A stretch of 52,645 bases of DNA, taken from positions 1 to 52,645 of the IMG/VR virus record IMGVR_UViG_3300048858_000048. One strand, written 5' to 3'. A model generated the notes under the pieces. The model ran no database searches and was not told the DNA's origin. It saw only the letters and a program-made list of their open reading frames with translations. Shown piece after piece: positions 559 through 19,693 of the stretch; position 1 is the first letter of the stretch; every line of letters begins with the position of its first letter. This DNA is from a virus. Its lineage: Duplodnaviria; Caudoviricetes. The position numbers and the translations under genes were made by a program.

Positions 559-2478
559 TCATGCTGCAACCCTTTCCCGCTCGACGGCAAGGTGGTTGCA
601 GTTTGCCGCGACCAGCGCCTTAGCCACCGGCGGGCAGACACTGTTGCCGACGCAGGAGACCTGCACGGATTTCGAGAACGGCACCCAGAGCGGGCCGCCG
701 TTGTGGCCGATCTTCGTCCGGTGATGGAAACCGTCGATCTTGTAGTCAGGCGGGAAGCCCTGCGCGTTGAACAGCTCGCGCGGGGTCAACATGCGCATGC
801 CGATATCGACGATGACGAAGGTCAAGCCATTCACTTCGACGGTGACGAACTCACGCTCGTCCCATAGGCCGTGCGCCCGCATGAAATCCGCGACCTGGCG
901 CGCCCTTGCCGCCTGCGCTTCCGTGAAAGGCGGCACGTCGACGACAGCCTCGATATGAGCATGACGCTGCTTGACGGTCGCCGTGCGCATAGCCTCGTCT
1001 TCTCGCGAGCCTTCCCCGGTCCTGAAGTATGATTGCAGGTATGGCAGGATGAGCTGGCTTTTGCCCTGACCGTCCGCCATCGTGGTCGCCAAAGGCTGAT
1101 CAACAGGATGGCCGGTCGAGGTTCCGAACTGCCGGGCGATATAAGCAGAAGCGACCTGCTGGTGACTGCCCGATTGCGTGATCGTCGAGATCGCATCGTC
1201 CATCGACCGGCCGGGATTCACCCCGCCGAGGCGTCGGCTGTCATTGTTGGCTTGCGCCATCCATGCGCACATGACCGAGTTTTGATCCTTGTCGCTGGCG
1301 GTGATCGTATGCGCCTGTCCGTCGACAGGACGGTTTGCGCCACCCTGTTGCGCATAGGTCAGCACCGGCGCCAGAAGGCCAAGCGGCGCCGCGCCTCCGG
1401 GTCGCTTGATGAAGCTGTTGGCCGTGATCGTCGGCATCTGGCCGCCCATGTCGATCCCGGTCGCACCAGTATTGAAGCGCTGAATAGATGGAGAGATGAG
1501 CGCCTTTTCGCCACGATGGGCGGCCGTGATTACCCTTGCCGGCTCATCGATACTCTCGATGCGTCCGCCATGGGTGAGATTGACCAGGAAAGGACGGTTC
1601 GCGCGGATCACGAACCGGTCGAGGCCCCGAGCAATCCGGGCATGGGAGGCAGAAGCAAGCGGCCGAACAGACCGCAGGCCATGCTTTGCCCAAATCTCCT
1701 CCGCCGTGTCGAAGATCGAAGGGCAAGGAATGCTCCAGTCGATACAGTCCGCGACGATCGGCCAGGGAAGCTTGCGACCGGCAATCACGTCGGCATCGCT
1801 AGGGCTGCCGTGCGTCGGCTGCGGCCAGACGATCTTCTGTCCATCAAATCTCATGATGATGAACAGCCGCTTCCGAATCGTCGGCGCGCCGTAGTCGCGG
1901 CCGCGCAGCTCGCGCATCTCGATCTTGGCGCCGAGGCTGCGGAGCTTCCGGCACCATTTCTGGAACGTCTCCCCCTTGCGGTCAGGGTCGGGCATCTGCC
2001 CCTTTGCCGTTTCCATCAACGGCCCGTAATCCTTGAATTCCTCGACGTTCTCCATGATCACGACGTCGACCTTGCCGCCGCTTTGCTGGATACGCTCGAT
2101 CCAGCCGGGAATGATCCAGCATAGATCGCGGATATTGCGCGCCACCGGCTTGCCGCCCTTGGCCTTCGAGAAGTGCTTGCAGTCAGGAGAGAACCAGGCG
2201 AGGCCGATATGTTTTCCGCGCAGATGGTCGAGCGGGTCGATCCGATAAACGTTTTCCGAAAGATGGATCGTCTCCGGATGGTTGACCTCATGCAGCGCCA
2301 GGGCGTCGGCATCATGGTTGATCGCATAGTCCGGCGACCGGCCAAGCGCCTGCTCGATACCGGTCGAGGCGCCACCACCACCGGCGAAACTGTCGATGAT
2401 GATAGGCCGGCCGGGATCCGGATTGAGAAGTGTCGAGGCCGCCAACGCAGTGAGCAGCGAAGCTTGGTGCATGTTCAT
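559..2478 (-). CDS. DNA cytosine-5 methyltransferase (long phage type)
   Basis: Motif I FAGGGG, catalytic motif IV SPDC, motif VI ENV, motif VIII RKRLF, C-terminal GNSV. Confidence 0.92.
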   Translation of the reverse strand: MNMHQASLLTALAASTLLNPDPGRPIIIDSFAGGGGASTGIEQALGRSPDYAINHDADALALHEVNHPETIHLSENVYRIDPLDHLRGKHIGLAWFSPDCKHFSKAKGGKPVARNIRDLCWIIPGWIERIQQSGGKVDVVIMENVEEFKDYGPLMETAKGQMPDPDRKGETFQKWCRKLRSLGAKIEMRELRGRDYGAPTIRKRLFIIMRFDGQKIVWPQPTHGSPSDADVIAGRKLPWPIVADCIDWSIPCPSIFDTAEEIWAKHGLRSVRPLASASHARIARGLDRFVIRANRPFLVNLTHGGRIESIDEPARVITAAHRGEKALISPSIQRFNTGATGIDMGGQMPTITANSFIKRPGGAAPLGLLAPVLTYAQQGGANRPVDGQAHTITASDKDQNSVMCAWMAQANNDSRRLGGVNPGRSMDDAISTITQSGSHQQVASAYIARQFGTSTGHPVDQPLATTMADGQGKSQLILPYLQSYFRTGEGSREDEAMRTATVKQRHAHIEAVVDVPPFTEAQAARARQVADFMRAHGLWDEREFVTVEVNGLTFVIVDIGMRMLTPRELFNAQGFPPDYKIDGFHHRTKIGHNGGPLWVPFSKSVQVSCVGNSVCPPVAKALVAANCNHLAVERERVAA

Positions 2479-3920
2479 GCCGCGACCACCGCCTCCGGCT
2501 GCCTTGACAGCACCCTATGACGCCCAAGTCGCCCCGGCTCACTGGCCGGCGAGATCAACCCGGCCTCGACGAACTCGGCAATGATCGCTTCGACCGTGCT
2601 GTCGCGACGGCCGATCCCTCGGCAAAGGTCCGCGCGATCGAATTCGTCCCGCTGCAGGACCCATGCCCGCGCGTCCTCCCGGTCACGATCGACCCGCTCG
2701 TGAAGTTCCAGTTTAGGTGTCGTGCGGGGCGCATCGTCGAAGTACATACCAAGCGCATGACCGCCCTCGCCCGGCTCCAGCGCTTCCGTGTCGACATGGT
2801 CTTTCCAGTCGATCCGACGCATGATCGTCGTATCGCCATAGCTGCCGTCCTCTTGCCGTTCCCAAACCACCCAAGCCGTGTTCATGCGGCTGGACGCCTT
2901 CGGCCCCTCGTAGCCTTCGCGATGCATCATCGGCAGACGGCGCTTGAAGACATAGATCCGCGCTGGCGGGCATTCATCCATGACGAAATTGCGATCCTCG
3001 TCGGCAAAGCCGGCCAGGACATTGAGGTTCAGCAGTAGCGCCAGCTTGCGTGGTTTGTAGACGCGCAGCGCATGCGCGATGAAAGCATTGAGAACTTCGC
3101 CATAAGGCGGGTTAGTGACGATATCCGGCCCCTCCCCCACGGCTTCCGGCTTGCTCAGAAGGAAGTCGCCAACCGACTGGACGATCCCGGCCTCGGAGAT
3201 GGCGCCGCGATCCTCGATATCTGACAGGATTACGTCATAGCCATGCGCCTCGAAGACACGGCCGATGGCGTTGTAACCGCAGGCCGGGTCGAAGACCGTT
3301 GACGTGAAACTCTCGTGGGCCAGAAGCGAGATCGTCGCGACATCGGGCGTCTGATAGAAGTTCTGACCCCGATCTTCCTTGGAAGCCGAGGCCGTGCCGA
3401 TCGCGGCGCGCAGGCTGTTCTTCGTCGGCAGCATGCCCTGCGCGGAAATCCCAACGATGGTGCGGCGGATCACGCCTGGCTCTTTCAGCTCCGCATCACG
3501 CAGCTTTCGGGCGTCGAGAACCACCTGTTTGTCGAGGCCGAAATCTTCAAGCCGAAAAAGGTCTAGAGTTTCGACCTTTTTCGGCCGCCCTCGCGAGGCC
3601 ACCACGCCGGCCGCCTGCGCCGCGTCATATTCGTTAGCGAGCGCCACCCGTGCGAGGCTGCCGATTTCGAGCGCTTCGACCACCATTGCATGCGCCCGGC
3701 TGATGACGCCTTCGCTCGCTTTCATGCGGGCCGCGAAGCCGTGTGCGGCCTTGGCCTCATCATAGGCGCCCTCCGACAGCATCATCGCCGCGCGCATGTC
3801 GCCGGCGTCGAGGAGCTGCCGCGCCTGGTTGATGCGTTCGGCAAGGGCGCGGGTATCGAAACGGTCGACGGGAACCGGAACCGGCTGCGGATCGGGGAGA
3901 GCGACGGCCGCCATCATCAC
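2475..3920 (-). CDS. Amino (N6A/N4C) DNA methyltransferase with N-terminal helical extension
   Basis: FYQTP, SAM-binding FDPACG, catalytic TNPPY; overlap-coupled to neighbours. Confidence 0.75.
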   Translation of the reverse strand: MMMAAVALPDPQPVPVPVDRFDTRALAERINQARQLLDAGDMRAAMMLSEGAYDEAKAAHGFAARMKASEGVISRAHAMVVEALEIGSLARVALANEYDAAQAAGVVASRGRPKKVETLDLFRLEDFGLDKQVVLDARKLRDAELKEPGVIRRTIVGISAQGMLPTKNSLRAAIGTASASKEDRGQNFYQTPDVATISLLAHESFTSTVFDPACGYNAIGRVFEAHGYDVILSDIEDRGAISEAGIVQSVGDFLLSKPEAVGEGPDIVTNPPYGEVLNAFIAHALRVYKPRKLALLLNLNVLAGFADEDRNFVMDECPPARIYVFKRRLPMMHREGYEGPKASSRMNTAWVVWERQEDGSYGDTTIMRRIDWKDHVDTEALEPGEGGHALGMYFDDAPRTTPKLELHERVDRDREDARAWVLQRDEFDRADLCRGIGRRDSTVEAIIAEFVEAGLISPASEPGRLGRHRVLSRQPEAVVAA

Positions 3921-4111
3921 ACCGACCTCGCTTCGTCCATAAGCTCCCGCGTTTCCGCCTCGGAAAGGCCGGCCTCGCGGGCAATATCGGACAGTGAAAG
4001 ACCATCCGCCATCAGCTGGCGAACGCGCGCCGCCTTCGATTCGCGCACCAGGTCATCGGCTGTCAGGTCGTCTTGCGGCAAGGCCGCTTTCTGTGCTGCC
4101 CTGCTCATCAT
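3917..4111 (-). CDS. Small HTH-like hypothetical protein
   Basis: GLSLSDIAREAGLSE resembles an HTH; ATGA overlaps on both sides. Confidence 0.6.
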   Translation of the reverse strand: MMSRAAQKAALPQDDLTADDLVRESKAARVRQLMADGLSLSDIAREAGLSEAETRELMDEARSV

Positions 4112-4581
4112 GCACCCCTCGCCGCGACCTTGCGGTCAATCGTGCTGCAGGCGGCAGAAAGCGAAGAAGCGATGTCGGAGATCTTCTCCCGAAGGTCGCG
4201 CAGCTCCGCCAGGGAATATTCGCCATCGGAAAGAGCCTCGGAATGAGCGCCGAGATATTCGGACACCTCGTGCATGATGGTGGCGGTCTCCATCGAGAGC
4301 GATCGCACGCGCGATGCAGGAGAAGCGCTTTCGGTGGCAGCCGGCAGGCGGGCATAAGCAGAGGAGAGGATCGACCGCCCGAGATCCGCTTCAAGCGCGA
4401 TCATTGCCCAGTGCGGCATCTGGTCGGCCATGTCCCAGTTGTTCCAGTTTCCGACCACAGTCTTGCCGCAGCCGAGGAATAGGGAAATACGGTCAATGCC
4501 GCCGGCAGCCGCGATTAGATCGCGAGTGCTGCCCTTGATGGCCGGGAACCACGGCTGCTTGATGATGTCTTCTTTTTTCAC
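4108..4581 (-). CDS. Phage regulatory protein, CII-like
   Basis: Downstream of cro; 'TRDLIAAAGG..ALEADLG..ALSDGEYSLAE' pattern typical of alphaproteobacterial CII-like proteins; GGAGG RBS. Confidence 0.6.
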   Translation of the reverse strand: MKKEDIIKQPWFPAIKGSTRDLIAAAGGIDRISLFLGCGKTVVGNWNNWDMADQMPHWAMIALEADLGRSILSSAYARLPAATESASPASRVRSLSMETATIMHEVSEYLGAHSEALSDGEYSLAELRDLREKISDIASSLSAACSTIDRKVAARGA

Positions 4582-4916
4582 GGTGCCAACCTCCAGGCAA
4601 AGCGAGAGCGCAACCGGAATTTTTGTGAAAAATTCCAGTCGAGCGGTGTGCGGTCGAACGCTAATGATGATCGGGAGTCCGCTGATTTACGGAGACCCTG
4701 ATGCCAACTCTACAAACATGCCCCTGCCGACCGGGGATGAATTCCATGAGGCCGGTCGGCAGGGTCTCTTCAGAGCTGCCGCCGTGCAGCCCTGAAGCCT
4801 CGAAAGGTCAGCGCCGAGCCGAAACTGCTTGCCGCAACGGTGGGCGCGTTTGGCTCGGCGCACAGTCAGTCGCGTGGAGGATGACGCGCCCGACCGGAGG
4901 AGAATGGAGGATAGGT

Positions 4917-5042
4917 TCACTTGGCACCGGCCTTTCCGGCGGCGCGATGGCACCAGGCGATCGCACCCAATCCAATACAGCCGCCAACAAGACTGCCGGC
5001 GAGACCACCAAGCACAACCACGAGAACCGTTTGAACGATCAT
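4917..5042 (-). CDS. Small single-TM membrane protein (41 aa)
   Basis: MIVQTVLVVVLGGLAGSLVGGCIGLGAIAW; ATG overlaps cro stop (ATGA). Confidence 0.5.
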   Translation of the reverse strand: MIVQTVLVVVLGGLAGSLVGGCIGLGAIAWCHRAAGKAGAK

Positions 5043-5296
5043 TGCAGGGCCTCGACAACCGAACGAGGCTCCGGACGCACAATAGCGCAGTCGGGCCACA
5101 CAGCGCCGGCCGGCCAATTGTCTGAGAACCAGTGAATTGCCTCGTTAAAGCGAGCCGTAGTCAAGTCCGCCCCCGTCCTTAAAGCCCCCAATTTCTTGCT
5201 GTCCGCAAACACGCGACCGCTCACAGTTTTTTCCGCCACGCCAGAGGCGCGTTGATACGCGTCAGAAATCAGAAGCAGGTCAGCGATGTCGAACAT
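5039..5296 (-). CDS. Cro-like repressor
   Basis: Divergent from cI; MFDIADLL..YQRASGVAEKTVSGRVFADSKKL..WFSDNWP is a typical alphaproteobacterial phage Cro-like sequence. Confidence 0.7.
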   Translation of the reverse strand: MFDIADLLLISDAYQRASGVAEKTVSGRVFADSKKLGALRTGADLTTARFNEAIHWFSDNWPAGAVWPDCAIVRPEPRSVVEALQ

Positions 5297-5306
5297 GGAA
5301 TCACTA

Positions 5307-5380
5307 TCGGTTAAATTACCGAATAGCGCAACGATTTTATTACCGATATCCAATCTTCTGCATTCTGGTAAAAATACCAG
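5307..5380. promoter_or_regulatory. cI/cro operator region (OR-like): three related 16-bp sites
   Basis: TCGGTTAAATTACCGA (5307-5322), ACGATTTTATTACCGA (5331-5346, half-site), CTGGTAAAAATACCAG (5365-5380). Confidence 0.75.
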
Positions 5381-5381
5381 A

Positions 5382-6116
5382 ATGGAAAGCACCATTTATG
5401 AGCGCATCAAAGAGCGCCTTGACGCCTTGGGTTTGACGGAGACCACCGCCGCCAGAGCTGCTAATTTAAGCGAGGGAGCGATCCGAAATATCCGCCGTAG
5501 ATACGAGCGGGGCGAGCGACAGGTCGGGATCAGCTCGACCACCGCCGATAAATTGGCGCCAATCTTACAGACGTCCGTCGAATGGATCGTCGCGGGAACC
5601 GGCGAGCCGCAGGCTGCGCAACAAGCCCCACCCGCAACACCCCTCGTCCGACCAGGCCGGCCCCGCTCGAACGCTAGTTTTCCCCCGGTCTACCAGCGGT
5701 TTTCCGGAGAAACCACGCTCCCTGTGCTAGGCCAGACCAGTGCAGGCCCCAATGGTCGCTTCATCTTGAATGGGAGTGAAGTCGGCAGGGTATTCACGCC
5801 CCCGATGCTCGAAGGGGTCGAGGGCGCCTATGCTGTGCGGGTATACGGGACTTCTATGGAGCCCCGCTATTTTGCCGGCGAAACAGTCTGGATAAATCCC
5901 AGAGAGCCTGTGAGGGCGGGCGATGACGTAGTCGTTCAGTTGCTCACTGAAGTCGAGCACGAGCGGGAAAGTTATATTAAAAAGTTTGTTTCGAAATCTG
6001 CCAAGGTCACTCGCCTGTATCAATACAACCCTGATGAGGGCGAAGCCAACGAGCTTGAATATCCTTCAGACCGCGTGTTTTCCGTACATAAAATTGTTTT
6101 CCACGCTTCCGTTTGA
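5382..6116 (+). CDS. CI-like repressor, HTH plus S24 autopeptidase domain
   Basis: N-terminal HTH (AARAANLSEGAIRNI), Ala-Gly site (TSAG), catalytic Ser (GTSMEP) and Lys (YIKK). Confidence 0.9.
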   Translation: MESTIYERIKERLDALGLTETTAARAANLSEGAIRNIRRRYERGERQVGISSTTADKLAPILQTSVEWIVAGTGEPQAAQQAPPATPLVRPGRPRSNASFPPVYQRFSGETTLPVLGQTSAGPNGRFILNGSEVGRVFTPPMLEGVEGAYAVRVYGTSMEPRYFAGETVWINPREPVRAGDDVVVQLLTEVEHERESYIKKFVSKSAKVTRLYQYNPDEGEANELEYPSDRVFSVHKIVFHASV

Positions 6117-6371
6117 GGGATTGGCCGCTGGCAGCCACCGAGGCCGAACGGTCAGATTGCGCGCGCTCGGCGGTTGCGGCGGGCAAGCGCGGCAAAGGAA
6201 CTTCCTGCAGAGGTCCGAATAGGTCTGAACACCCTTTTGCGACGCTTGGAACAGGTCTGGCAGACCGAGCACAGTCGAGCGCCCGCAGTCATCACAAGCG
6301 ACGTAAACGCTGGTCAGTTCGACCACCAGTCTGTGTCCATCAGCGGCGCGGTTTGCGGTTCCATGCGACAT
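6066..6371 (-). CDS. Zinc-ribbon protein, candidate SOS-induced antirepressor
   Basis: MSHG...CDDC...CRAC; GGAG RBS; LexA-type box just upstream. Confidence 0.6.
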   Translation of the reverse strand: MSHGTANRAADGHRLVVELTSVYVACDDCGRSTVLGLPDLFQASQKGVQTYSDLCRKFLCRACPPQPPSARNLTVRPRWLPAANPSNGSVENNFMYGKHAV

Positions 6372-6386
6372 GCCTTTCTCCTGTTT

Positions 6387-6401
6387 GTTCCCAGTTCGTT
6401 C
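6387..6401. promoter_or_regulatory. Alphaproteobacterial LexA (SOS) box GTTC-N7-GTTC
   Basis: GTTC CCAGTTC GTTC, about 15 nt upstream of the 6371 start codon. Confidence 0.7.
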
Positions 6402-6489
6402 CGGGTGGTTGTCTTTAAAGCGAATCACTCGCGAAGAGTCCAGAGGATTCATTGGCGCCGCGATCAAAAAGTTAATGACTCCATATAGA

Positions 6490-6563
6490 TCGGTAATATT
6501 ACCGAAACGGGCTTGTATATCGGTAAATTTACGGCTAGCTTTTCGGCATCGGTAATCGACCGA
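6490..6563 (+). promoter_or_regulatory. Early-operon promoter/operator region (OL-like)
   Basis: Perfect palindrome TCGGTAATATTACCGA (6490-6505), TCGGTAAATTTACGGC (6520-6535), TCGGTAATCGACCGA (6549-6563); putative -35 TTGTAT (6513), 17 nt, -10 TAGCTT. Confidence 0.75.
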
Positions 6564-6581
6564 TGCAACAAGGAGCCCCCG

Positions 6582-6887
6582 ATGCACAAGTCCAACAAGA
6601 AAGCCCTTCCCCGCCTGACCCGCGATATTTTTGCCGCGAAGGTCGCCGGTGCAAAATCCAAGCATGACCTATATCGCGCTGGCTTTGACGACGAGGTGAT
6701 TGCCGCAACGGCCGCCGGCGTCGAGGCACTGACCCAGTCGCTCGAAGACGGCATTTTCAACGCCTACCTCTCCGGTTGCCGCCTCGAAAAGGACTATATC
6801 GCCGCCGGTTTTTCGCCGGAAGAACTCGCACTCGTCTCCGATCGCGTTGCCAAGAGGGTGCGTGCCGCCGAGCCGATGGCAGCCTGA
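6582..6887 (+). CDS. Hypothetical protein, first gene of early operon
   Basis: AAGGAG RBS then ATG at 6582; internal repeat LYRAGF / YIAAGF. Confidence 0.7.
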   Translation: MHKSNKKALPRLTRDIFAAKVAGAKSKHDLYRAGFDDEVIAATAAGVEALTQSLEDGIFNAYLSGCRLEKDYIAAGFSPEELALVSDRVAKRVRAAEPMAA

Positions 6888-6970
6888 AAGCGAGCCGCCT
6901 TGGCCCGCTTCGGTGACCGGCTCCCGACGAGGGGGAGCCGGCATCCCAATCAGGCGAAAGGACCAACCCC

Positions 6971-7321
6971 ATGAGAAACAAGGAAGAGGCCGGTCAGATT
7001 GACCGGGCGGCCGGCACGCGCTTGCGCACTATCCGGAAAGTGCGCGGCATATCGCAGGAAGCGCTTGCCGCCGCTATCGGCGTCACGTTTCAGCAGGTGC
7101 AGAAATACGAGAAGGGCACAAACCGAATTGCGATCTCGACGCTCGTTCTCATATGCCGCGCCTTGAATTGCACGCCGATGGAAATCATCGGCGAGGATCT
7201 CGATCGGAGCGCCACCGCGACGATCGACACGCTGGCAAGCCACAACGCGGATCTGGTGCGCCGCCTTGCCGAAGTCGCCAAGATCGCCCGGCTCCCGCAG
7301 CGTGGGGAGATGCGCATATGA
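6971..7321 (+). CDS. XRE-family HTH regulator
   Basis: RKVRGISQEALAAAIGVTFQQVQKYEKGTNRI. Confidence 0.9.
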   Translation: MRNKEEAGQIDRAAGTRLRTIRKVRGISQEALAAAIGVTFQQVQKYEKGTNRIAISTLVLICRALNCTPMEIIGEDLDRSATATIDTLASHNADLVRRLAEVAKIARLPQRGEMRI

Positions 7322-10994: not shown

Positions 10995-11317
10995 TGACCT
11001 CTGATGCGCCCTTCAACCCTGCAGACCCGTTCGACGCGACGATCGAGGATCTGCGGAAATCGCTCACCCTGTCCGTCGCGTTCCACATAGAGAACCATCA
11101 GCCCATGCAGCTGCTCGACCACGGCAGGCGCTACCAAGCGGTTATGATCGCCCTTCTCGTGACGACGACCGGATGCCTGGACACACTGACGTTGCCTGGC
11201 AACGAAAAGCACATGCTCAGGGCGATCAAGTCCTACCTGCCCGAGGCACTTCGGATTGCGCGGGAAATCGCCGCAAACGGTGAGATGGAAGTGGCGAAGG
11301 GGGAGGCAAAACATTGA
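10994..11317 (+). CDS. Hypothetical protein
   Basis: TGATG coupling, GGAG RBS. Confidence 0.6.
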   Translation: MTSDAPFNPADPFDATIEDLRKSLTLSVAFHIENHQPMQLLDHGRRYQAVMIALLVTTTGCLDTLTLPGNEKHMLRAIKSYLPEALRIAREIAANGEMEVAKGEAKH

Positions 11318-11553
11318 CCACCGACAACACGCCGATTTCACCAATAGCAGTCTTGGCTGCTTTCGCGGACCAGAAGGTCAAGCTTCCCCTCCGCATGTCA
11401 GGCGAGGACGCCGGCGTCATACTTGATGACGATGGCGTGGACGTTCTCACAGTGGACAGCAACGGTATGCGCGCTGACGACGAAGCACTCGCGATCGCCA
11501 CATTGATCGTGAGCGCTGTAAATCATCTCGCAGGACTGGAGGGCTCAAAATGA
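11314..11553 (+). CDS. Hypothetical phage protein
   Basis: GGAGG RBS, TTG start overlapping upstream stop. Confidence 0.6.
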   Translation: MTTDNTPISPIAVLAAFADQKVKLPLRMSGEDAGVILDDDGVDVLTVDSNGMRADDEALAIATLIVSAVNHLAGLEGSK

Positions 11554-12074
11554 AGGGCCGTCCCGTATTTCTTCCAAAGCCAGTGCGGAAATCTGGCGGT
11601 GCCCGGCCACCGCATCCCGCCGATCAGAACGCGAAAAAACTCCCCCGTCACCCGCACACGGATGATTTCTTCGTGACCGAGTTCGCCGAAACGATGAAGG
11701 ACAAACTTGCGCTCAAGCGCGGGGAAGGTCGCGGCGGATGGGAGAACAAGGAAGAGTGCTCGGGAGAATTCCTGTCGCAGCTCCTCCGCGAACATGTCGA
11801 GAAGGGCGACCCGGTCGACGTTGCCAACTTCTGCATGATGCTGCACCAGCGCGGCGAGCGGATATCCCCAGCACCCCAGCCACATTTGGCGGGCGTCACC
11901 GATGCAGAACGCCTGGAAGATTTGCGCCTCGCCGCTAAGGCGATCCGCACGTATATGCCGGAGACGCTTCCCGCAGGTGAAGACGGTAAAATCCATTTTG
12001 CTCGCGCTCTAGCCGAAGCTGCGGCCGATGCGATCGAGGCAGTGCTCGCCACCATGGAGGGCTCGGCAGAATGA
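11550..12074 (+). CDS. Modular phage early protein (all-alpha, MazG/Ead-like domain, linker, second module)
   Basis: KLALKR..GRGGW..LREHVEKGDPVDVANFCMMLH is a recurrent phage domain; contains linker copy 11865-11900. Confidence 0.6.
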   Translation: MKGRPVFLPKPVRKSGGARPPHPADQNAKKLPRHPHTDDFFVTEFAETMKDKLALKRGEGRGGWENKEECSGEFLSQLLREHVEKGDPVDVANFCMMLHQRGERISPAPQPHLAGVTDAERLEDLRLAAKAIRTYMPETLPAGEDGKIHFARALAEAAADAIEAVLATMEGSAE

Positions 12075-12823
12075 GCCGCACCCTGTGCTGGATATCCGGC
12101 GGCGCTGCCAGCGTCATTGCCGCCAAGATTGAGTTGACCGATAACCCGGCCGCGATCTGTGTCCGCTGCGACACTAACAACGAGGACGAGGACAACCAGC
12201 GCTTCGAGGCAGAAGCCCTGTATTGGCTCAATGCCGAGTTTCATATCATCAAGTCCCAGGACTATGACGGCGTAGTGGATGTTTGGGAAAAGCGGAAGTT
12301 TATGGCCGGGCCGAAGGGCGCGCCGTGCACTTTGGAAACGAAGATCATTCCGCGCCTCGAATTCCAGCGTCCGGATGATATCCACGTTTTTGGCTACACC
12401 GCCGACAAACCCGATGTAGCTCGCTTTGCGAGGCTGAAGGCCAACTATCCGGAACTGATCGTCAAGGCGCCGCTCATCGCCGCCGGCATCGACAAGTCAG
12501 GCGCACTGGCGATGTTGTTGCGGGCGGGGCTGACTCCGCCGCGCACCTACGCCATGGGCTTCCCGAACGCCAATTGCCTGCAGACGGGATGCGTCAAGGC
12601 GACCTCGCCGGATTACTGGTCCCTCTTTCGCCAGAAGTTTCCGGAGCGGTTTGCCGCGATGGCAGAGCGTTCACGGCGTATCGGAGCGCGCCTTGCTCGC
12701 ATCAATGACGAGCGCATCTTCATCGACGAAATCCCCGCCGACTGGCCGGTCACCAACCCGATCGCGCCCGCCTGCGACTTCATCTGCCAGTTGGCGGAAA
12801 TGGACATGGAGAAGGTAGCATGA
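12071..12823 (+). CDS. PAPS-reductase-like / adenine nucleotide alpha hydrolase family phage protein
   Basis: PP-loop-like WISGGAAS, APCTLETK, YAMGFPNANC..GCVK. Confidence 0.7.
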   Translation: MSRTLCWISGGAASVIAAKIELTDNPAAICVRCDTNNEDEDNQRFEAEALYWLNAEFHIIKSQDYDGVVDVWEKRKFMAGPKGAPCTLETKIIPRLEFQRPDDIHVFGYTADKPDVARFARLKANYPELIVKAPLIAAGIDKSGALAMLLRAGLTPPRTYAMGFPNANCLQTGCVKATSPDYWSLFRQKFPERFAAMAERSRRIGARLARINDERIFIDEIPADWPVTNPIAPACDFICQLAEMDMEKVA

Positions 12824-14985
12824 ACGATCTCATGATCGATATCGAAACGCTCGGTCATCGGCCGGGAAGCGTGATCGCCAGCATCGGCGCAATCGAGTTC
12901 GACGCCGCCACCGGCGAATTCGGCCAGAGCTATTATCTCACCGTCGATCCGGAAAGCTGCCAACGACATGGCCTCAAGATCGACGCATCCACGGTGAAAT
13001 GGTGGATGACACAGAGCGAAGAAGCCCGAGCCAGCACGTTCGCCGAGGGCATTTCTATCAACCATGCTCTTCTCGATCTCACGCGGTTCGTCCAGGATTG
13101 CGAGCCCGCGAGAATATGGGCGCATAGCCCATCCTTCGACGTCGTGCAGCTGGAAGCAGCCTATGAGGCTTGCGTCTCCCCGTGCCCATGGACCTACAAG
13201 CAACCTCGCGACACGCGGACGCTCTTCGACCTCGCAGGCGTCAAGATCGAGAAGAACGGCGTGCACCACAACGCTGCGGACGATGCTCGCGCCCAGGCAG
13301 AAGCCGTGATCCGCGCCTACCAGCAGCTCGGCTTGTCCTCCCCAGCGCCCCAACCGAACGTGGCGGGCCTTACTTCTCCTGCTTCAACCTCTCCCATTCG
13401 TCCGGTTGAAGCGCGGCCTGAAGGACAACATCAACCTGATCAAGGTACGACTGCCACATCGGCCTGCCCTCAAACTTCGCGTTCTCCGGTAGCCCATGAA
13501 ACCGACACAGAGCGCGAGCTGCACGCTCACGAGGACTTTTTTGACGAACAGTCATCGGAACCCTCCGAAGGAAAACGGCGGCATCTTACCACGACCGCCC
13601 CGCCCCAACAGCATTTGCGGGTTCATTCGTCACGTCTGACGCTGTTGTCGATACTGTGCCTCTGCCTAACTAGCGCATCTACTCGCCTGTCCGATTTGAT
13701 CTCCTGCCATGTTACCCATGCGATTAAGGCGATAAACATCAGGCCAACCACCCGAGTAACCCAAAGTGCCCCAGTAGGCCCGAAAACCGCCACCAGTGGC
13801 GCAGCGCGCGAATATGAAGTGACGTCTCTGATTAAGATCAGTTCTGCCAAAAAGAAGGCGATCAGGCCTATTCCGATCACCTTGGTGTTGAACAACTTTC
13901 TCACAGCATTGTCCTTGCCGCTCTCAAGGGCCTCCGAACGATCTTTCCCAGAGGCTATCCCCAATCAAGATAGCGGATACGTCCAAGAACGGAAGAAGGC
14001 CGATGCCTGCTGCAACCTAGCTGGATTGCACCAGCTGGCGCCCCCATCACCCCAACCTAAAGTGGTGCCTCTAACCTGCCAATGTGCCAACACCGTCACC
14101 GATCCCTGCATCGTATGCGGCAGGGGCAAAACACTCGTTACCGTTGAGTGGCTGCAAAAGATGGCGGCGAAGGAAGGTGATCTCGATTGCACGACGGGCC
14201 GCCCATCCCCCGTAACCAATGTGCTGCCGCCTGTTGTCACTGGCCAGAGGGAGATTGAACCGGACGTCACATCCGCAGATTTGGGCGTGAATGCTGAACC
14301 GGCCGATGACGAAATCGGTCCGCATGAGCAGGCGTTGCGGGATGCCGTCGAGCCTTTCTTAGATTGGCTGGAGATGCGTGAAGAAGGAGCCCATATCCAA
14401 GAAGTACGAGACGGCCTGATTGGCGTGGAAGACGTTCTCCCCGACGATCTGGTCGTTTTGGGCGCCCACCTGCGTGCTGACAAGGATCAAGGCGTCCTGA
14501 CGATGGGGCACTTCCGTCGATTGCAGAATGCCTATGACGGCAACGCCACCCCATCGCCCCAACCGAATGTGCTGCCGCCTGTCGTGACCGGACAGCTGGA
14601 AATCGAGCAGGACGTGACAGCAACCGATCTAGGGGCAAACGCCGAACCCGACGCCGACGACTATTGCCCGGCTTGTGGTGGCAGTGGCCGTGTCGGGCCA
14701 TTCTTTCCGGGTGGCCTATCCACAGTCTGCGGCAATTGCTCCGACACCGTGCCCCCATCGAATGTGACGGGCCTCTCCGACGAACAGCGCGGCGTTGGTA
14801 TTGGAATGGCGATCGCGGCCGGCATCGTCATGAAGTCGTGGGGCAACGACACCTACGCCCGCGAGATCCTCGGTGCGGCCGGCCTCCACACCCTCGAAAA
14901 GCTCAAAGCATCAGGTGTCGATCAATACGACATCGATCTAGTGATCCCGGCCCTTGCCGCCACCGCGACGGAGGCAAGCCGATGA
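12820..14985 (+). CDS. 3'-5' exonuclease (DEDDh, exo VIII-like) fused to a linker-separated multi-module tail
   Basis: MIDIETLG, SFDVVQLE, RDTRT, HNAADDA in the first ~170 aa; the rest is a mosaic with Cys-rich modules. Confidence 0.75.
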   Translation: MNDLMIDIETLGHRPGSVIASIGAIEFDAATGEFGQSYYLTVDPESCQRHGLKIDASTVKWWMTQSEEARASTFAEGISINHALLDLTRFVQDCEPARIWAHSPSFDVVQLEAAYEACVSPCPWTYKQPRDTRTLFDLAGVKIEKNGVHHNAADDARAQAEAVIRAYQQLGLSSPAPQPNVAGLTSPASTSPIRPVEARPEGQHQPDQGTTATSACPQTSRSPVAHETDTERELHAHEDFFDEQSSEPSEGKRRHLTTTAPPQQHLRVHSSRLTLLSILCLCLTSASTRLSDLISCHVTHAIKAINIRPTTRVTQSAPVGPKTATSGAAREYEVTSLIKISSAKKKAIRPIPITLVLNNFLTALSLPLSRASERSFPEAIPNQDSGYVQERKKADACCNLAGLHQLAPPSPQPKVVPLTCQCANTVTDPCIVCGRGKTLVTVEWLQKMAAKEGDLDCTTGRPSPVTNVLPPVVTGQREIEPDVTSADLGVNAEPADDEIGPHEQALRDAVEPFLDWLEMREEGAHIQEVRDGLIGVEDVLPDDLVVLGAHLRADKDQGVLTMGHFRRLQNAYDGNATPSPQPNVLPPVVTGQLEIEQDVTATDLGANAEPDADDYCPACGGSGRVGPFFPGGLSTVCGNCSDTVPPSNVTGLSDEQRGVGIGMAIAAGIVMKSWGNDTYAREILGAAGLHTLEKLKASGVDQYDIDLVIPALAATATEASR
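13370..13555 (-). CDS. Small hypothetical protein nested antisense in the exonuclease ORF
   Basis: GGAGG RBS; protein-like sequence KSPRERAARALCRFHGLPENAKFEGRPMWQSYL; stop codon abuts linker copy 2. Confidence 0.7.
   Translation of the reverse strand: MTVRQKSPRERAARALCRFHGLPENAKFEGRPMWQSYLDQVDVVLQAALQPDEWERLKQEK
13623..13964 (-). CDS. Two-TM membrane protein nested antisense in the exonuclease ORF (start may be GTG at 13904)
   Basis: Two hydrophobic helices (VIGIGLIAFFLAELILI; VVGLMFIALIAWVTW); visibly lower GC; stop codon abuts linker copy 3. Confidence 0.6.
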   Translation of the reverse strand: MGIASGKDRSEALESGKDNAVRKLFNTKVIGIGLIAFFLAELILIRDVTSYSRAAPLVAVFGPTGALWVTRVVGLMFIALIAWVTWQEIKSDRRVDALVRQRHSIDNSVRRDE

Positions 14986-15233
14986 TCAGAGACTACATGG
15001 GCAAGGCCGAGTTCGACGACGAGGCACGTGAAGGAACGCGCGTCCTGGCCAAAGAGGAGTTTTGCCGCCGCTTTGTTGAGTACATGACACGGGAGGCTGG
15101 CTTCGAAGTCTTCGATAACGGGCAAACCGTTCGCGCCTATGCGGAAGAAACCGCCCCCGACTATTGGGATAACAGTCCCGACATCCCACCGGAAGAAGCC
15201 GCAGAAGCCGACATGGATTGCTGGGAGGATTGA
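14982..15233 (+). CDS. Hypothetical phage protein
   Basis: GGAGG RBS, ATGA overlap; acidic C-terminus PEEAAEADMDCWED. Confidence 0.65.
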   Translation: MIRDYMGKAEFDDEAREGTRVLAKEEFCRRFVEYMTREAGFEVFDNGQTVRAYAEETAPDYWDNSPDIPPEEAAEADMDCWED

Positions 15234-15282
15234 CCATGACAAAAAATGACACCCCAGCGCCGCAGACGAGGGAGATTGGGAA

Positions 15283-15447
15283 GTGATCTGGACGCTTTTT
15301 ACCATTTGCGCGGTCACCGCCCTCCACGGAATGACGATCATAAGCAGCCAAAAATCGCTTAGCGCGTGGTTTGCAAGCCTGATGCCGCTCTTTCTGGGGC
15401 TCAACGGCATGGTCATCGCAATTGTCCTGAGACACTGGGGATTCTGA
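15283..15447 (+). CDS. 54-aa two-TM membrane protein (not in ORF track)
   Basis: GGAG RBS then GTG; MIWTLFTICAVTALHGMTII...LMPLFLGLNGMVIAIVLRHWGF; TGATG coupling to next gene. Confidence 0.5.
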   Translation: MIWTLFTICAVTALHGMTIISSQKSLSAWFASLMPLFLGLNGMVIAIVLRHWGF

Positions 15448-19009: not shown

Positions 19010-19693
19010 ATGCCAGTAGTTGTCATGTGCTCCACGAAAGGTGGAGTGGGAAAATCAACCGCCGCACTCGTCCTGTCGCAGGTGTATTGCGCGGCCGGCA
19101 AAGCAACCGCGTTGATTGATGCAGATCCGAACCAGCCGCTCGCAACCTGGGCAAAACGCTCGGCCGAGGCCATCCCCAAAAATTTAACCGTCATCGGCGG
19201 GATCAACGAACAGACGATCATCGACACGATCGAGGACGCGGCCGCGAAAAACACCTTCGTCATTGTCGACCTCGAAGGCTCGGCGAACATGACCGCCACC
19301 TATGCGGTAAGCCGCGCCGACCTGGTCTTGATACCGATGCGCGGCAAGCAGCTCGACGCCGACCAGGCGGGGAGGGTGGTCGCCTTTATCAAGCAGCAAA
19401 ACAAGGCGTTCGGCCGTGACATCGCCTATCGCGCGATGTTTTCCATGATGGATCAGCTCACGAGCCGAGAGGAGCGACATATTCGGGCGATGCTTGCGGA
19501 AAACGGGATACCGATCCTGCCGGCCGCATTGAAGAATATGGCCGCATTCTCCGCCATTTTCCAGACTGGCGGCACGATATTCGACCTGACCAAGGAGGAT
19601 GTCACCAACACCTCCAAGGCGATCCAGAACGCCGGAGAGCTGGCGCAAGCCGTCGCCGCAGCCATTCCAACGAAAAGGGCTAAGGTAGCATGA
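19010..19693 (+). CDS. parA: ParA-family partition ATPase (short, type Ib)
   Basis: Deviant Walker A KGGVGKST, LIDADPNQ, VIVDLEG. Confidence 0.93.
   Translation: MPVVVMCSTKGGVGKSTAALVLSQVYCAAGKATALIDADPNQPLATWAKRSAEAIPKNLTVIGGINEQTIIDTIEDAAAKNTFVIVDLEGSANMTATYAVSRADLVLIPMRGKQLDADQAGRVVAFIKQQNKAFGRDIAYRAMFSMMDQLTSREERHIRAMLAENGIPILPAALKNMAAFSAIFQTGGTIFDLTKEDVTNTSKAIQNAGELAQAVAAAIPTKRAKVA

Follow-up and report, generated by a model that had tools for sequence, protein, structure and literature searches.

How could a phage carry genes on the opposite strand inside one of its early genes without interrupting translation across them? The question is raised by a virus record of 52.6 kilobases (kb), IMGVR_UViG_3300048858_000048 (Duplodnaviria; Caudoviricetes), whose whole stretch of 52,645 nucleotides (nt) was analysed and is referred to here as the window. 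The plus-strand early operon of this record lies at ~6.5-20.8 kb, with the structural genes on the minus strand, and contains a 721-codon open reading frame (ORF) within which two small genes, ORF61 and ORF113, are encoded antisense. Both genes are, on the evidence set out below, real and probably inserted at short in-frame linkers, and the sense frame is open across the two of them. Coordinates of the main features, with lengths in amino acids (aa) where applicable, are as follows.

12820..14985, plus strand: the 721-codon early-operon ORF, without an internal stop
12820..13338, plus strand: Rv2179c-like 3′-5′ exonuclease domain, residues 1-173 (Pfam PF16473)
13339..13369, plus strand: linker 1 (SSPAPQPNVAG), repeat families D2 and D3, followed by the ORF61 stop
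13370..13555, minus strand: ORF61, 61 aa, ATG start, of a conserved alphaproteobacterial prophage family (7 viral loci, 117 genome hits)
13556..13593, minus strand: ORF61 leader with GGAGGG, TGGTAAGAT and a weak hairpin followed by a T-run
13594..13622, plus strand: degenerate linker (TTAPPQQHLRV) between the cassettes, repeat families D3 and D4, followed by the ORF113 stop
13623..13964, minus strand: ORF113, 113 aa, predicted small membrane protein, starting at TTG 13964 or GTG 13904
13965..14040, plus strand: region ahead of ORF113 without a family match, its sense frame open
14041..14985, plus strand: sense modules A-D, with linkers at 14041, 14200, 14548 and 14749
14982..15233, plus strand: next early gene, GGAGG 7 nt upstream, overlapping the end of the 721-codon ORF at ATGA

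Two antisense genes within one open frame

The 721-codon ORF is chained to its neighbours at both ends by ATGA overlaps, one between its own ATG and the preceding stop codon and one, at 14982, between its own stop and the next ATG. The match of its product to a known family in Pfam is limited to the first ~170 residues (PF16473; expectation value (E) 7e-50; score 169.6 bits, where the cut-off is 27; residues 2-163 aligned with profile positions 1-173 of 177). With the 721-aa sequence as tblastn query, 531 phage records were matched, all at less than 60% identity and none over at least 80% of the query, and among the matches listed (30 of the 531) the coverage is residues 1-187 only. The sense frame is free of stops for the 224 codons of 13369-14040, where the other two plus-strand frames have 11 and 10 stops. 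Its translation there is 30% serine, threonine and proline, compared with 17% in the exonuclease domain, and has no family match in Pfam. The guanine-plus-cytosine (GC) content of the sense frame by codon position, 0.68/0.57/0.41 over ORF61 and 0.44/0.53/0.60 over ORF113, is atypical for coding sequence; the minus-strand frames have the usual order of first above second position (0.68/0.40/0.56 for ORF61 and 0.54/0.44/0.61 for ORF113). A preliminary description of this DNA had claimed two intact antisense genes in two different registers, nested in an uninterrupted 721-codon ORF that continues for about 220 stop-free, Ser/Thr/Pro-rich codons, and the ORF list, the stop counts, the composition and the coordinates (ORF61 and ORF113 are offset by 1 and 2 bases from the sense frame) bear this out.

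The ATG of ORF61 is preceded by GGAGGG at 13566-13561 (minus strand), 5 nt ahead of it, which is the GGAGG ribosome-binding site of the preliminary description. Further up in the leader are TGGTAAGAT at 13591-13583 (minus strand), a putative promoter element, and a weak hairpin with a T-run after it at 13592-13578. The protein follows the pattern ..RERAARALC..PE...FEG.PMW.SYL..VD.VL.AA.. and has seven relatives in viral contigs, at 63-76% identity. A tblastn search of species-representative genomes gave 117 hits, mostly in Alphaproteobacteria with a few rows labelled otherwise; the genome-locus counts below cover the best 80 of these 117. Family members are ~54-128 aa long and share the core E..AARALC..(P)E...FEG.PMW.SY, and columns M1, A12, R14, A15, C17 and W34 are invariant in 51 sequences. 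A confident AlphaFold model from these 51 sequences (predicted local distance difference test score, pLDDT, 82) consists of three helices and a small hairpin, and a Foldseek comparison with the PDB gave it no match at E<=0.001. Neither ORF61 nor ORF113 has a match in Pfam, PHROGs, NCBIfam or PADLOC, a protein atlas gave unnamed clusters only, and a search of deposited phage genomes with the two gave no matches.

Relatives of ORF61 are also found beside repressors. In loci L004, L005 and L007 the relative lies just downstream of a helix-turn-helix (HTH)/S24 repressor-like gene on the same strand; the Pfam S24 score is 40.6 bits in L004 and 21.6 in L005, the latter below the cut-off, and L007 was likened to L005 by eye only. 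BLAST searches with four repressor queries placed a repressor-like gene within 2.5 kb in 16 of the 80 genome loci, upstream and on the same strand in 13. A position downstream of CI/S24-type repressors fits expression in the lysogen and is an indirect hint of it. The repressor/ORF61-homologue pair of L005 is closely followed downstream, at 4656-6317, by an ORF of 553 aa in which (V/A)(W/R/G)(D/A)QV is repeated in tandem dozens of times.

Two hydrophobic helices can be read by eye in ORF113, which also has the motif LFGPxGALW and the tail QRxxIDxSxRRD, and its GC content is 0.51-0.55 against 0.57-0.67 in the surroundings, in keeping with the two transmembrane helices and lower GC content first attributed to it. 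Its start is uncertain: TTG 13964 has no ribosome-binding site, and the more plausible GTG 13904 has AAGGA 7 nt upstream and corresponds to the start of the homologue P0002. Two close homologues have 75% and 68% identity. Twelve more distant cluster representatives were found at E<=1e-3 (E 3e-18 to 3.5e-4), eleven of them 58-131 aa long and one 292 aa. The 11 that were aligned have two hydrophobic helices (by eye) and a G..A.W motif, and in most of them the charged tail ends the protein. In an alignment of 13 sequences G62 and W68 do not vary, conservation of A66, R71 and D106 is 90% or more, and the family features of two helices, G..(A)..W opening helix 2 and a charged C-terminal ..ID.S.RRD are all present. 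No relative was found among viral contigs, and a profile search of genome contigs gave again only L009, a free-standing copy adjoining an integrase in a Rhizobiales island. The L009 island (2157-3317, 5585-6916) carries the integrase-like ORF and a 386-aa ORF in which RelA/SpoT-like nucleotide pyrophosphokinase motifs can be recognized by eye. The proposal that the two genes are captured cargo accordingly finds free-standing homologues for both, in the 117 genome hits of ORF61 and in the L009 copy of ORF113.

Selection can be read clearly over the first gene. Across eight viral sequences the ORF61 frame has nonsynonymous differences (pN) of 0.03-0.45 and synonymous differences (pS) of 0.26-0.92, with omega 0.09-0.24 where calculable, whereas the window's sense register over ORF61 gives omega 1.3-3.3. 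Between L001 and L002, in both of which the gene is nested, the ORF61 frame has pN 0.025 and pS 0.28, so that selection persists in the nested state, and the sense register has pN 0.10 and pS 0. No protein-level constraint acts on the sense reading over ORF61. Over ORF113 the two strands are alike (pN/pS 0.125/0.59 antisense, 0.14/0.52 sense), and the ratio of nonsynonymous to synonymous substitution rates (dN/dS) cannot separate them, as the antisense gene and the sense frame have their third codon positions in common. The comparison of dN/dS per strand that was proposed at the outset therefore yields purifying selection in the ORF61 frame and leaves the strands of ORF113 indistinguishable. 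By its conservation and the selection on its frame ORF61 is a real gene; ORF113 is judged to be one as well, and the case for it rests on its family, the shared C-terminus, the hydrophobic pattern and codon-position GC. Gene callers will give one 721-aa "protein" at this locus and overlook two real, conserved small genes, one of them from a family that counts at least 117 members in species-representative genomes.

The same figures bear on the proposal of true dual coding, by which the sense peptide over the cassettes would be functional, for example as a disordered tether, and selected as protein. The frame is open in all five loci where ORF61 is nested (see below), and the sense register over ORF113 shows a low pN for its pS, as that proposal would have it. 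Low pN/pS is, however, to be expected over ORF113 from the third codon positions that coincide on both strands, while the high sense omega over ORF61, which extends even to L001 against L002, the atypical codon-position GC of the sense frame and the want of a family match for its peptide all speak against protein-level selection. Dual coding is considered highly improbable.

The in-frame linker and the modules it joins

Both cassettes are flanked by an in-frame DNA element of ~21-28 nt, CCA NCN CCC CAA CCG AAT GTG, which is read as SPxPQPNV. It is repeated at 13340, 14042, 14201 and 14549; the copies at 13594-13618 and 14751 are degenerate, and the ORF 11550-12074 has one more, at 11865. Where 0.35 matches to the linker core would be expected in the window there are 4, a number that none of 100 shuffles attains. 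That both antisense stops directly abut a linker, as the preliminary description held, can be seen in CCCCAACCGAACGTGGCGGGCC followed by TTA at 13370 and CCCCAACAGCATTTGCGGGT followed by TCA at 13623, and its view of the genes as cassettes is upheld in that both antisense ORFs are bounded by linker repeats. A linker stands directly before the ORF61 stop in L046 as it does in the window.

In the window and in its close relative G001, the motif [ST]P[AS]PQxN[VL] occurs on the early strand only and always within long ORFs; strict copies number 4 in the window and at least nine in G001 (L014-L016). The codons are fixed and are not those otherwise preferred. Over 15 copies from four genomes, the first proline is CCA in 13 (11% genome-wide) and the second is CCC in 14 (20% genome-wide); the valine is GTG in 10 of 10 (26% genome-wide), and the glutamine is CAA in 7 of 11 (23% genome-wide). 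Iterons and regulatory RNA were considered as interpretations of these repeats and rejected, as the copies all share the same strand and frame and mark module joints, with 150-700 nt between them.

Similarity between genomes starts and stops at linkers. Relative to G001, flanking blocks of the window are 78-84% identical and 14550-15269 is 99% identical, starting inside the linker at 14548. In contigs of three other DNA runs the match begins at 14553 and ends at 11881, both of them linkers, in a comparison across contigs of four DNA runs that displays module boundaries only. Modules C-D are joined to other upstream modules in G001. Counterparts of modules B and C, 65-83% identical, are part of further multi-module proteins, two cytosine methyltransferases among them. 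More distant phages (L023-L027), with an exonuclease 44-48% identical, have it fused to varied C-terminal modules in frames of 307-731 codons. For ORF61, the DNA similarity shared by the window, G002 and G003 extends from about the ORF61 stop through the gene and its ribosome-binding site to the linker (CCCCAACAGCATTTG, CACCCTCATCACATGTG and CACCCCAAACACATGTG, respectively), beyond which the three are wholly different. The degenerate linker at 13594..13622 aligns with those that follow ORF61 in G002 and G003, and the spacer from the ORF61 start to the linker, 57 nt long in the window, is 18 nt longer (75 nt) in both of the others. Judged from these boundaries and from the codon bias, the linker is a DNA-level joint at mosaic boundaries. 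A linker with fixed codons would be a candidate mechanism for the in-frame shuffling of phage early-protein modules, one that is testable in cultured Rhizobiales isolates with related prophages. That the conserved SPxPQPNV junctions might be cleavage points of a polyprotein is only an idea; no protease was found, with no search aimed at one.

Several smaller observations concern the modules themselves. The Cys-rich module C (14660-14748; CPACGGSGRVGPFFPGGLSTxCGNC) is found as a mid-protein insert in two PF00145 methyltransferases of other genomes (P0007 and P0008). A 111-nt direct repeat, 14202-14312 and 14550-14660 (72% identical), comprises the linker and an acidic stretch before modules B and C and encodes NVLPPVVTGQxEIExDVTxxDLGxNAEPxxD; G001 has the second copy only. 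One of the C-terminal modules of L023-L027 is the domain that precedes the ORF61 cassette in G003.

Openness of the sense frame

The stretch 13339-14985 contains 31 in-frame ATG, GTG or TTG codons, of which none has a GGAG-type core 4-11 nt upstream and one has a weak AAGG. By comparison, seven of nine operon starts tested have GGAG(G) at 7-10 nt, those at 12820 and 14982 included. Modules A-D are conserved as protein in other contexts. Since they have no initiation signals of their own, their translation appears to depend on ribosomes that enter at 12820 and read through. A different route would be internal initiation or re-initiation at the GTG or TTG codons of the linkers, in which case modules A-D would be made separately and the open frame would be irrelevant to their translation. 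All six linkers of the 721-codon ORF carry such a codon in frame, the final linker codon is GTG or TTG in 13 of the 15 copies, and many alphaproteobacterial genes start without a ribosome-binding site. Against this stand the missing GGAG-type core at linkers compared with GGAGG at the true operon starts, and the fixation of all linker codons rather than just the last, by which the GTG may simply belong to the DNA motif. Internal initiation also leaves the open frame across the cassettes in five loci unexplained, and it is regarded as distinctly unlikely.

On balance the most probable account is that cargo was spliced in at in-frame joints and that the sense frame has been kept open so that translation continues. 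The 721-codon ORF would be a string of small early-protein modules, the exonuclease and then A-D, joined in frame by the linker. Two independent conserved genes would have been placed antisense at the joints, each as a unit that runs from its stop through its start and ribosome-binding site to a linker, and would be read from their own ribosome-binding sites, probably in the lysogen while the early operon is silent. The sense reading across the cassettes would then be a meaningless Ser/Thr/Pro-rich spacer, and ribosomes from 12820 would translate 224 junk codons before reaching modules A-D and pass to the next gene at the ATGA of 14982. The open frame would be kept by selection, both at capture and afterwards. 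A sense stop would be selected against because modules A-D would stay untranslated, and it would expose ~670 nt of C-rich, G-poor untranslated RNA to Rho-dependent polarity. Untranslated RNA that is C-rich and G-poor is a typical Rho loading site, and the plus strand over the cassettes has this composition, with a GC skew of -0.10 to -0.25. A broader rule of unbroken early-region translation can be formulated tentatively for this group of soil alphaproteobacterial phages: the fixed joint would be a recombination site for the exchange of modules, antisense lysogen cargo would be admitted only in stop-free registers, and Rho would be blocked while the downstream modules and the genes coupled to them stay expressed. 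Selection on the reading frame would then be purely against stops, without any protein meaning. This rule is possible but doubtful.

The layout found in the window is not confined to it. ORF61 lies antisense in a long open frame, in the same register and with sense sequence that looks coding to either side, at five loci, as follows.

Window: 758 codons, stop to stop; the exonuclease on the upstream side and modules A-D on the downstream side
L001 (genome G002): 299 codons; ATGA overlap with a 481-aa gene at the start; a linker, then a MazG-like domain
L002 (genome G003): at least 284 codons, running off the contig end; upstream module matches PHROGs (6.5e-33)
L046: 291 codons, isolate genome; linker, cassette, degenerate linker, D-like module and ATGA-coupled next gene
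L043: 364 codons, isolate genome, early operon; flanks without a significant family match

The MazG-like domain of L001 scores 24 bits, below the Pfam cut-off of 27, and has no evident ribosome-binding site. The nested copies have diverged to a pairwise pS of 0.51-0.80 and pN of 0.22-0.33 (L001 against L002, 0.28 and 0.025), and purifying selection still acts on them. The ORF61 tree is poorly resolved; it groups the window with L046 (99/94) and L001 with L002, and L043 stands apart. Other frames were set aside: where a long frame is open over ORF61 in either of the other two registers, it is a shadow or, in L032, the upstream extension of a divergent recombinase gene, and the long frames in the window's register of L038, L058, L063, L078 and L080 are shadow-like by eye and were not counted as nested. 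Two further ORF61 homologues, L040 and L044 (Rhizobium and Pseudorhizobium), lie in same-register frames of 307 and 454 codons with partly shadow-like flanks and were left out of the nested count. With the ends of G003 joined (L002 and L013), the cassette and linker are followed by ~30 C-terminal exonuclease residues, a linker and a stop; the joining is assumed, as IMG/VR classes the record as linear. This exonuclease stub is 56% identical to window residues 147-184 and looks like a remnant of module exchange.

How readily would such a frame be open by chance? In 88 confident genes of four related phages, the three antisense registers have 0.007, 0.025 and 0.040 stops per codon; ORF61 sits in the worst of these and ORF113 in the middle one. 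Windows of real genes are open in those registers in 8% of cases for 62 codons and 6% for 114 codons. Given the encoded protein, synonymous resampling puts the probability of an open frame at 0.34 for ORF61, where within-gene permutation gives 0.14, and at 0.28-0.33 for ORF113, with 6 and 3 dicodon sites, respectively, at risk of a sense stop. The corresponding values for the spacers are 0.60 and 0.33 (0.18 with ORF113 starting at GTG). The product for the whole stretch is ~0.02, before the requirement of being in frame with modules A-D, and the chance is as high as this ~2% because stops are rare in both registers for these two proteins. The chance figure for the open frame is suggestive, not overwhelming.

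The open frame may be a coincidence: two antisense morons would have come to lie in a fused early gene whose frame is open by chance, with nothing to maintain its openness and modules A-D perhaps expendable. The probabilities of openness given the two proteins and the small number of at-risk dicodons are favourable to this, as are the 20 genome loci out of 80, and the free-standing copy in L009, that are open without need, and the case was picked out of many windows. What tells against it is the low figure for the whole stretch, which does not yet include staying in frame with modules A-D, and the repetition of the layout among other neighbours at L001, L002, L043 and L046, at pS 0.51-0.80 apart from the L001/L002 pair. 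Modules A-D, moreover, have no GGAG-type sites, yet C-D (14550-15269) are 99% identical to G001 and B and C recur elsewhere. Coincidence is considered unlikely.

Several results weigh against a frame that is kept open across the inserted cargo. Both registers are intrinsically stop-poor for the ORF61 and ORF113 proteins, the product of the open-frame probabilities for ORF61 alone over four nested lineages is 0.04 only, and 2% events are expected when many windows are scanned. The window's register is also open where no nesting is seen: it is stop-free in 5 of 8 viral ORF61 loci, some of them not nested, and the 80 genome loci have 0 stops in 20, 1 in 25, 2 in 18 and at least 3 in 17, so that freedom from stops in 20 of 80 genome and 5 of 8 viral loci includes non-nested ones. 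The free-standing ORF113 copy in L009 is open across 103 aligned codons. As for the nested loci, the tree cannot tell a single from a repeated origin of nesting, and the flanks of L043 match only phrog_17978 (E 0.0086), with a weak coding score for the far flank. Classing of flank strands by codon usage in 88 loci found 3 too short and 46 of the remaining 85 undecided on both flanks, and it is underpowered as a count of nested loci with stops. The in-frame GTG or TTG of every linker could permit internal initiation without a ribosome-binding site, dN/dS is silent on the strand of ORF113, and a consensus promoter scan of 12700-15300 returned 0 promoter-like sites for either antisense gene. With that scan, the extended -10-like motif of the preliminary description stands as a motif (TGGTAAGAT is present), and no consensus promoter was found to go with it. 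Terminator-like hairpins in the promoter/terminator scan were weak only, 4 against 2.3 expected.

Two expectations of the preliminary description are affected. That relatives would be free of sense stops holds for the five nested loci identified, and fails for the free-standing relatives, which carry stops in 60 of 80 genome loci. That the sense frame is under selection to stay open gains from the recurrence in four loci and loses from the stop-poor registers and the stops in free-standing relatives; such selection is likely but not proven. If the frame is kept open by selection, the locus would be a clean natural case of a frame maintained for the act of translation, for coupling and against polarity, and not for its product, and temperate phages could hold opposite-strand cargo inside an operon without a polarity cost.

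Known systems and genomic setting

Phage morons are independently expressed cargo genes located between conserved phage genes, such as lom and bor of lambda and the morons of HK97. Like these, ORF61 and ORF113 are small accessory genes that are missing from a close relative, as G001 lacks 10999-14550 and the 721-aa query matches only residues 577-721 in that record (shared blocks 78-99%). ORF61 has its own ribosome-binding site, ORF113 has a lower GC content, and both move between genomic contexts. Classical morons occupy intergenic gaps and have their own promoter and terminator, whereas here the cargo is antisense inside an unbroken ORF, in frame on both sides and at conserved in-frame joints, and the scan detected neither a promoter nor a convincing terminator for ORF61 or ORF113.

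Full embedding of an ORF antisense within a longer one is shared with the overlapping genes nog1, asa, laoB and ano, and in the passages of PMC7457138 that concern these the embedded ORF is young and the "mother" gene conserved. As far as that account goes, the present case is the opposite: the embedded genes are old, widespread and mobile, and the "mother" frame over ORF61 is unconstrained. Overprinting would imply constraint on both frames, and over ORF61 the sense omega is 1.3-3.3 against 0.09-0.24, with ORF113 uninformative. It would also imply origin de novo without free-standing homologues, and the 117 ORF61 hits are mostly non-nested and ORF113 has its copy in L009. On this evidence from comparative data the nested genes arose by insertion, not by overprinting.

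Conserved boundary "linker" sequences are carried by the mosaic joints of lambdoid phages, and Q-linkers join protein domains. The linkers described here resemble the former in being short and conserved and in lying at module edges where homology starts or stops, and the latter in peptides rich in proline, glutamine and serine. They differ from both in that the joints are inside ORFs, in one frame and on one strand, with fixed non-preferred codons, and in that they build long fused proteins and also flank opposite-strand cassettes. Translational coupling and Rho-dependent polarity are likewise established in operons, and the early genes of the window are chained in the manner of coupled ones through 4-nt ATGA overlaps with GGAGG ahead (11550, 12071, 12820 and 14982). 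What would set this operon apart is that a junk frame is kept open across foreign opposite-strand genes as the remedy. The arrangement combines known kinds, namely the moron, the antisense overlap and the mosaic joint; no description of such a combination was found in searches of the full-text literature, with subscription literature and supplementary files outside that scope.

The remaining genes of the window describe the phage itself. No integrase was identified among the window ORFs scanned, no tRNA genes were found, and an Rfam scan gave nothing relevant, with one sub-threshold match (E 0.88) outside the cassettes. The gene context, which includes the following, points to a temperate phage that may perhaps be maintained as a plasmid prophage; DNA methyltransferases are also encoded in the window.

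50-553: HicB-like gene
4108-4581, minus strand: CII-like activator
6971-7321: HTH regulator
19010-19693: ParA-like protein

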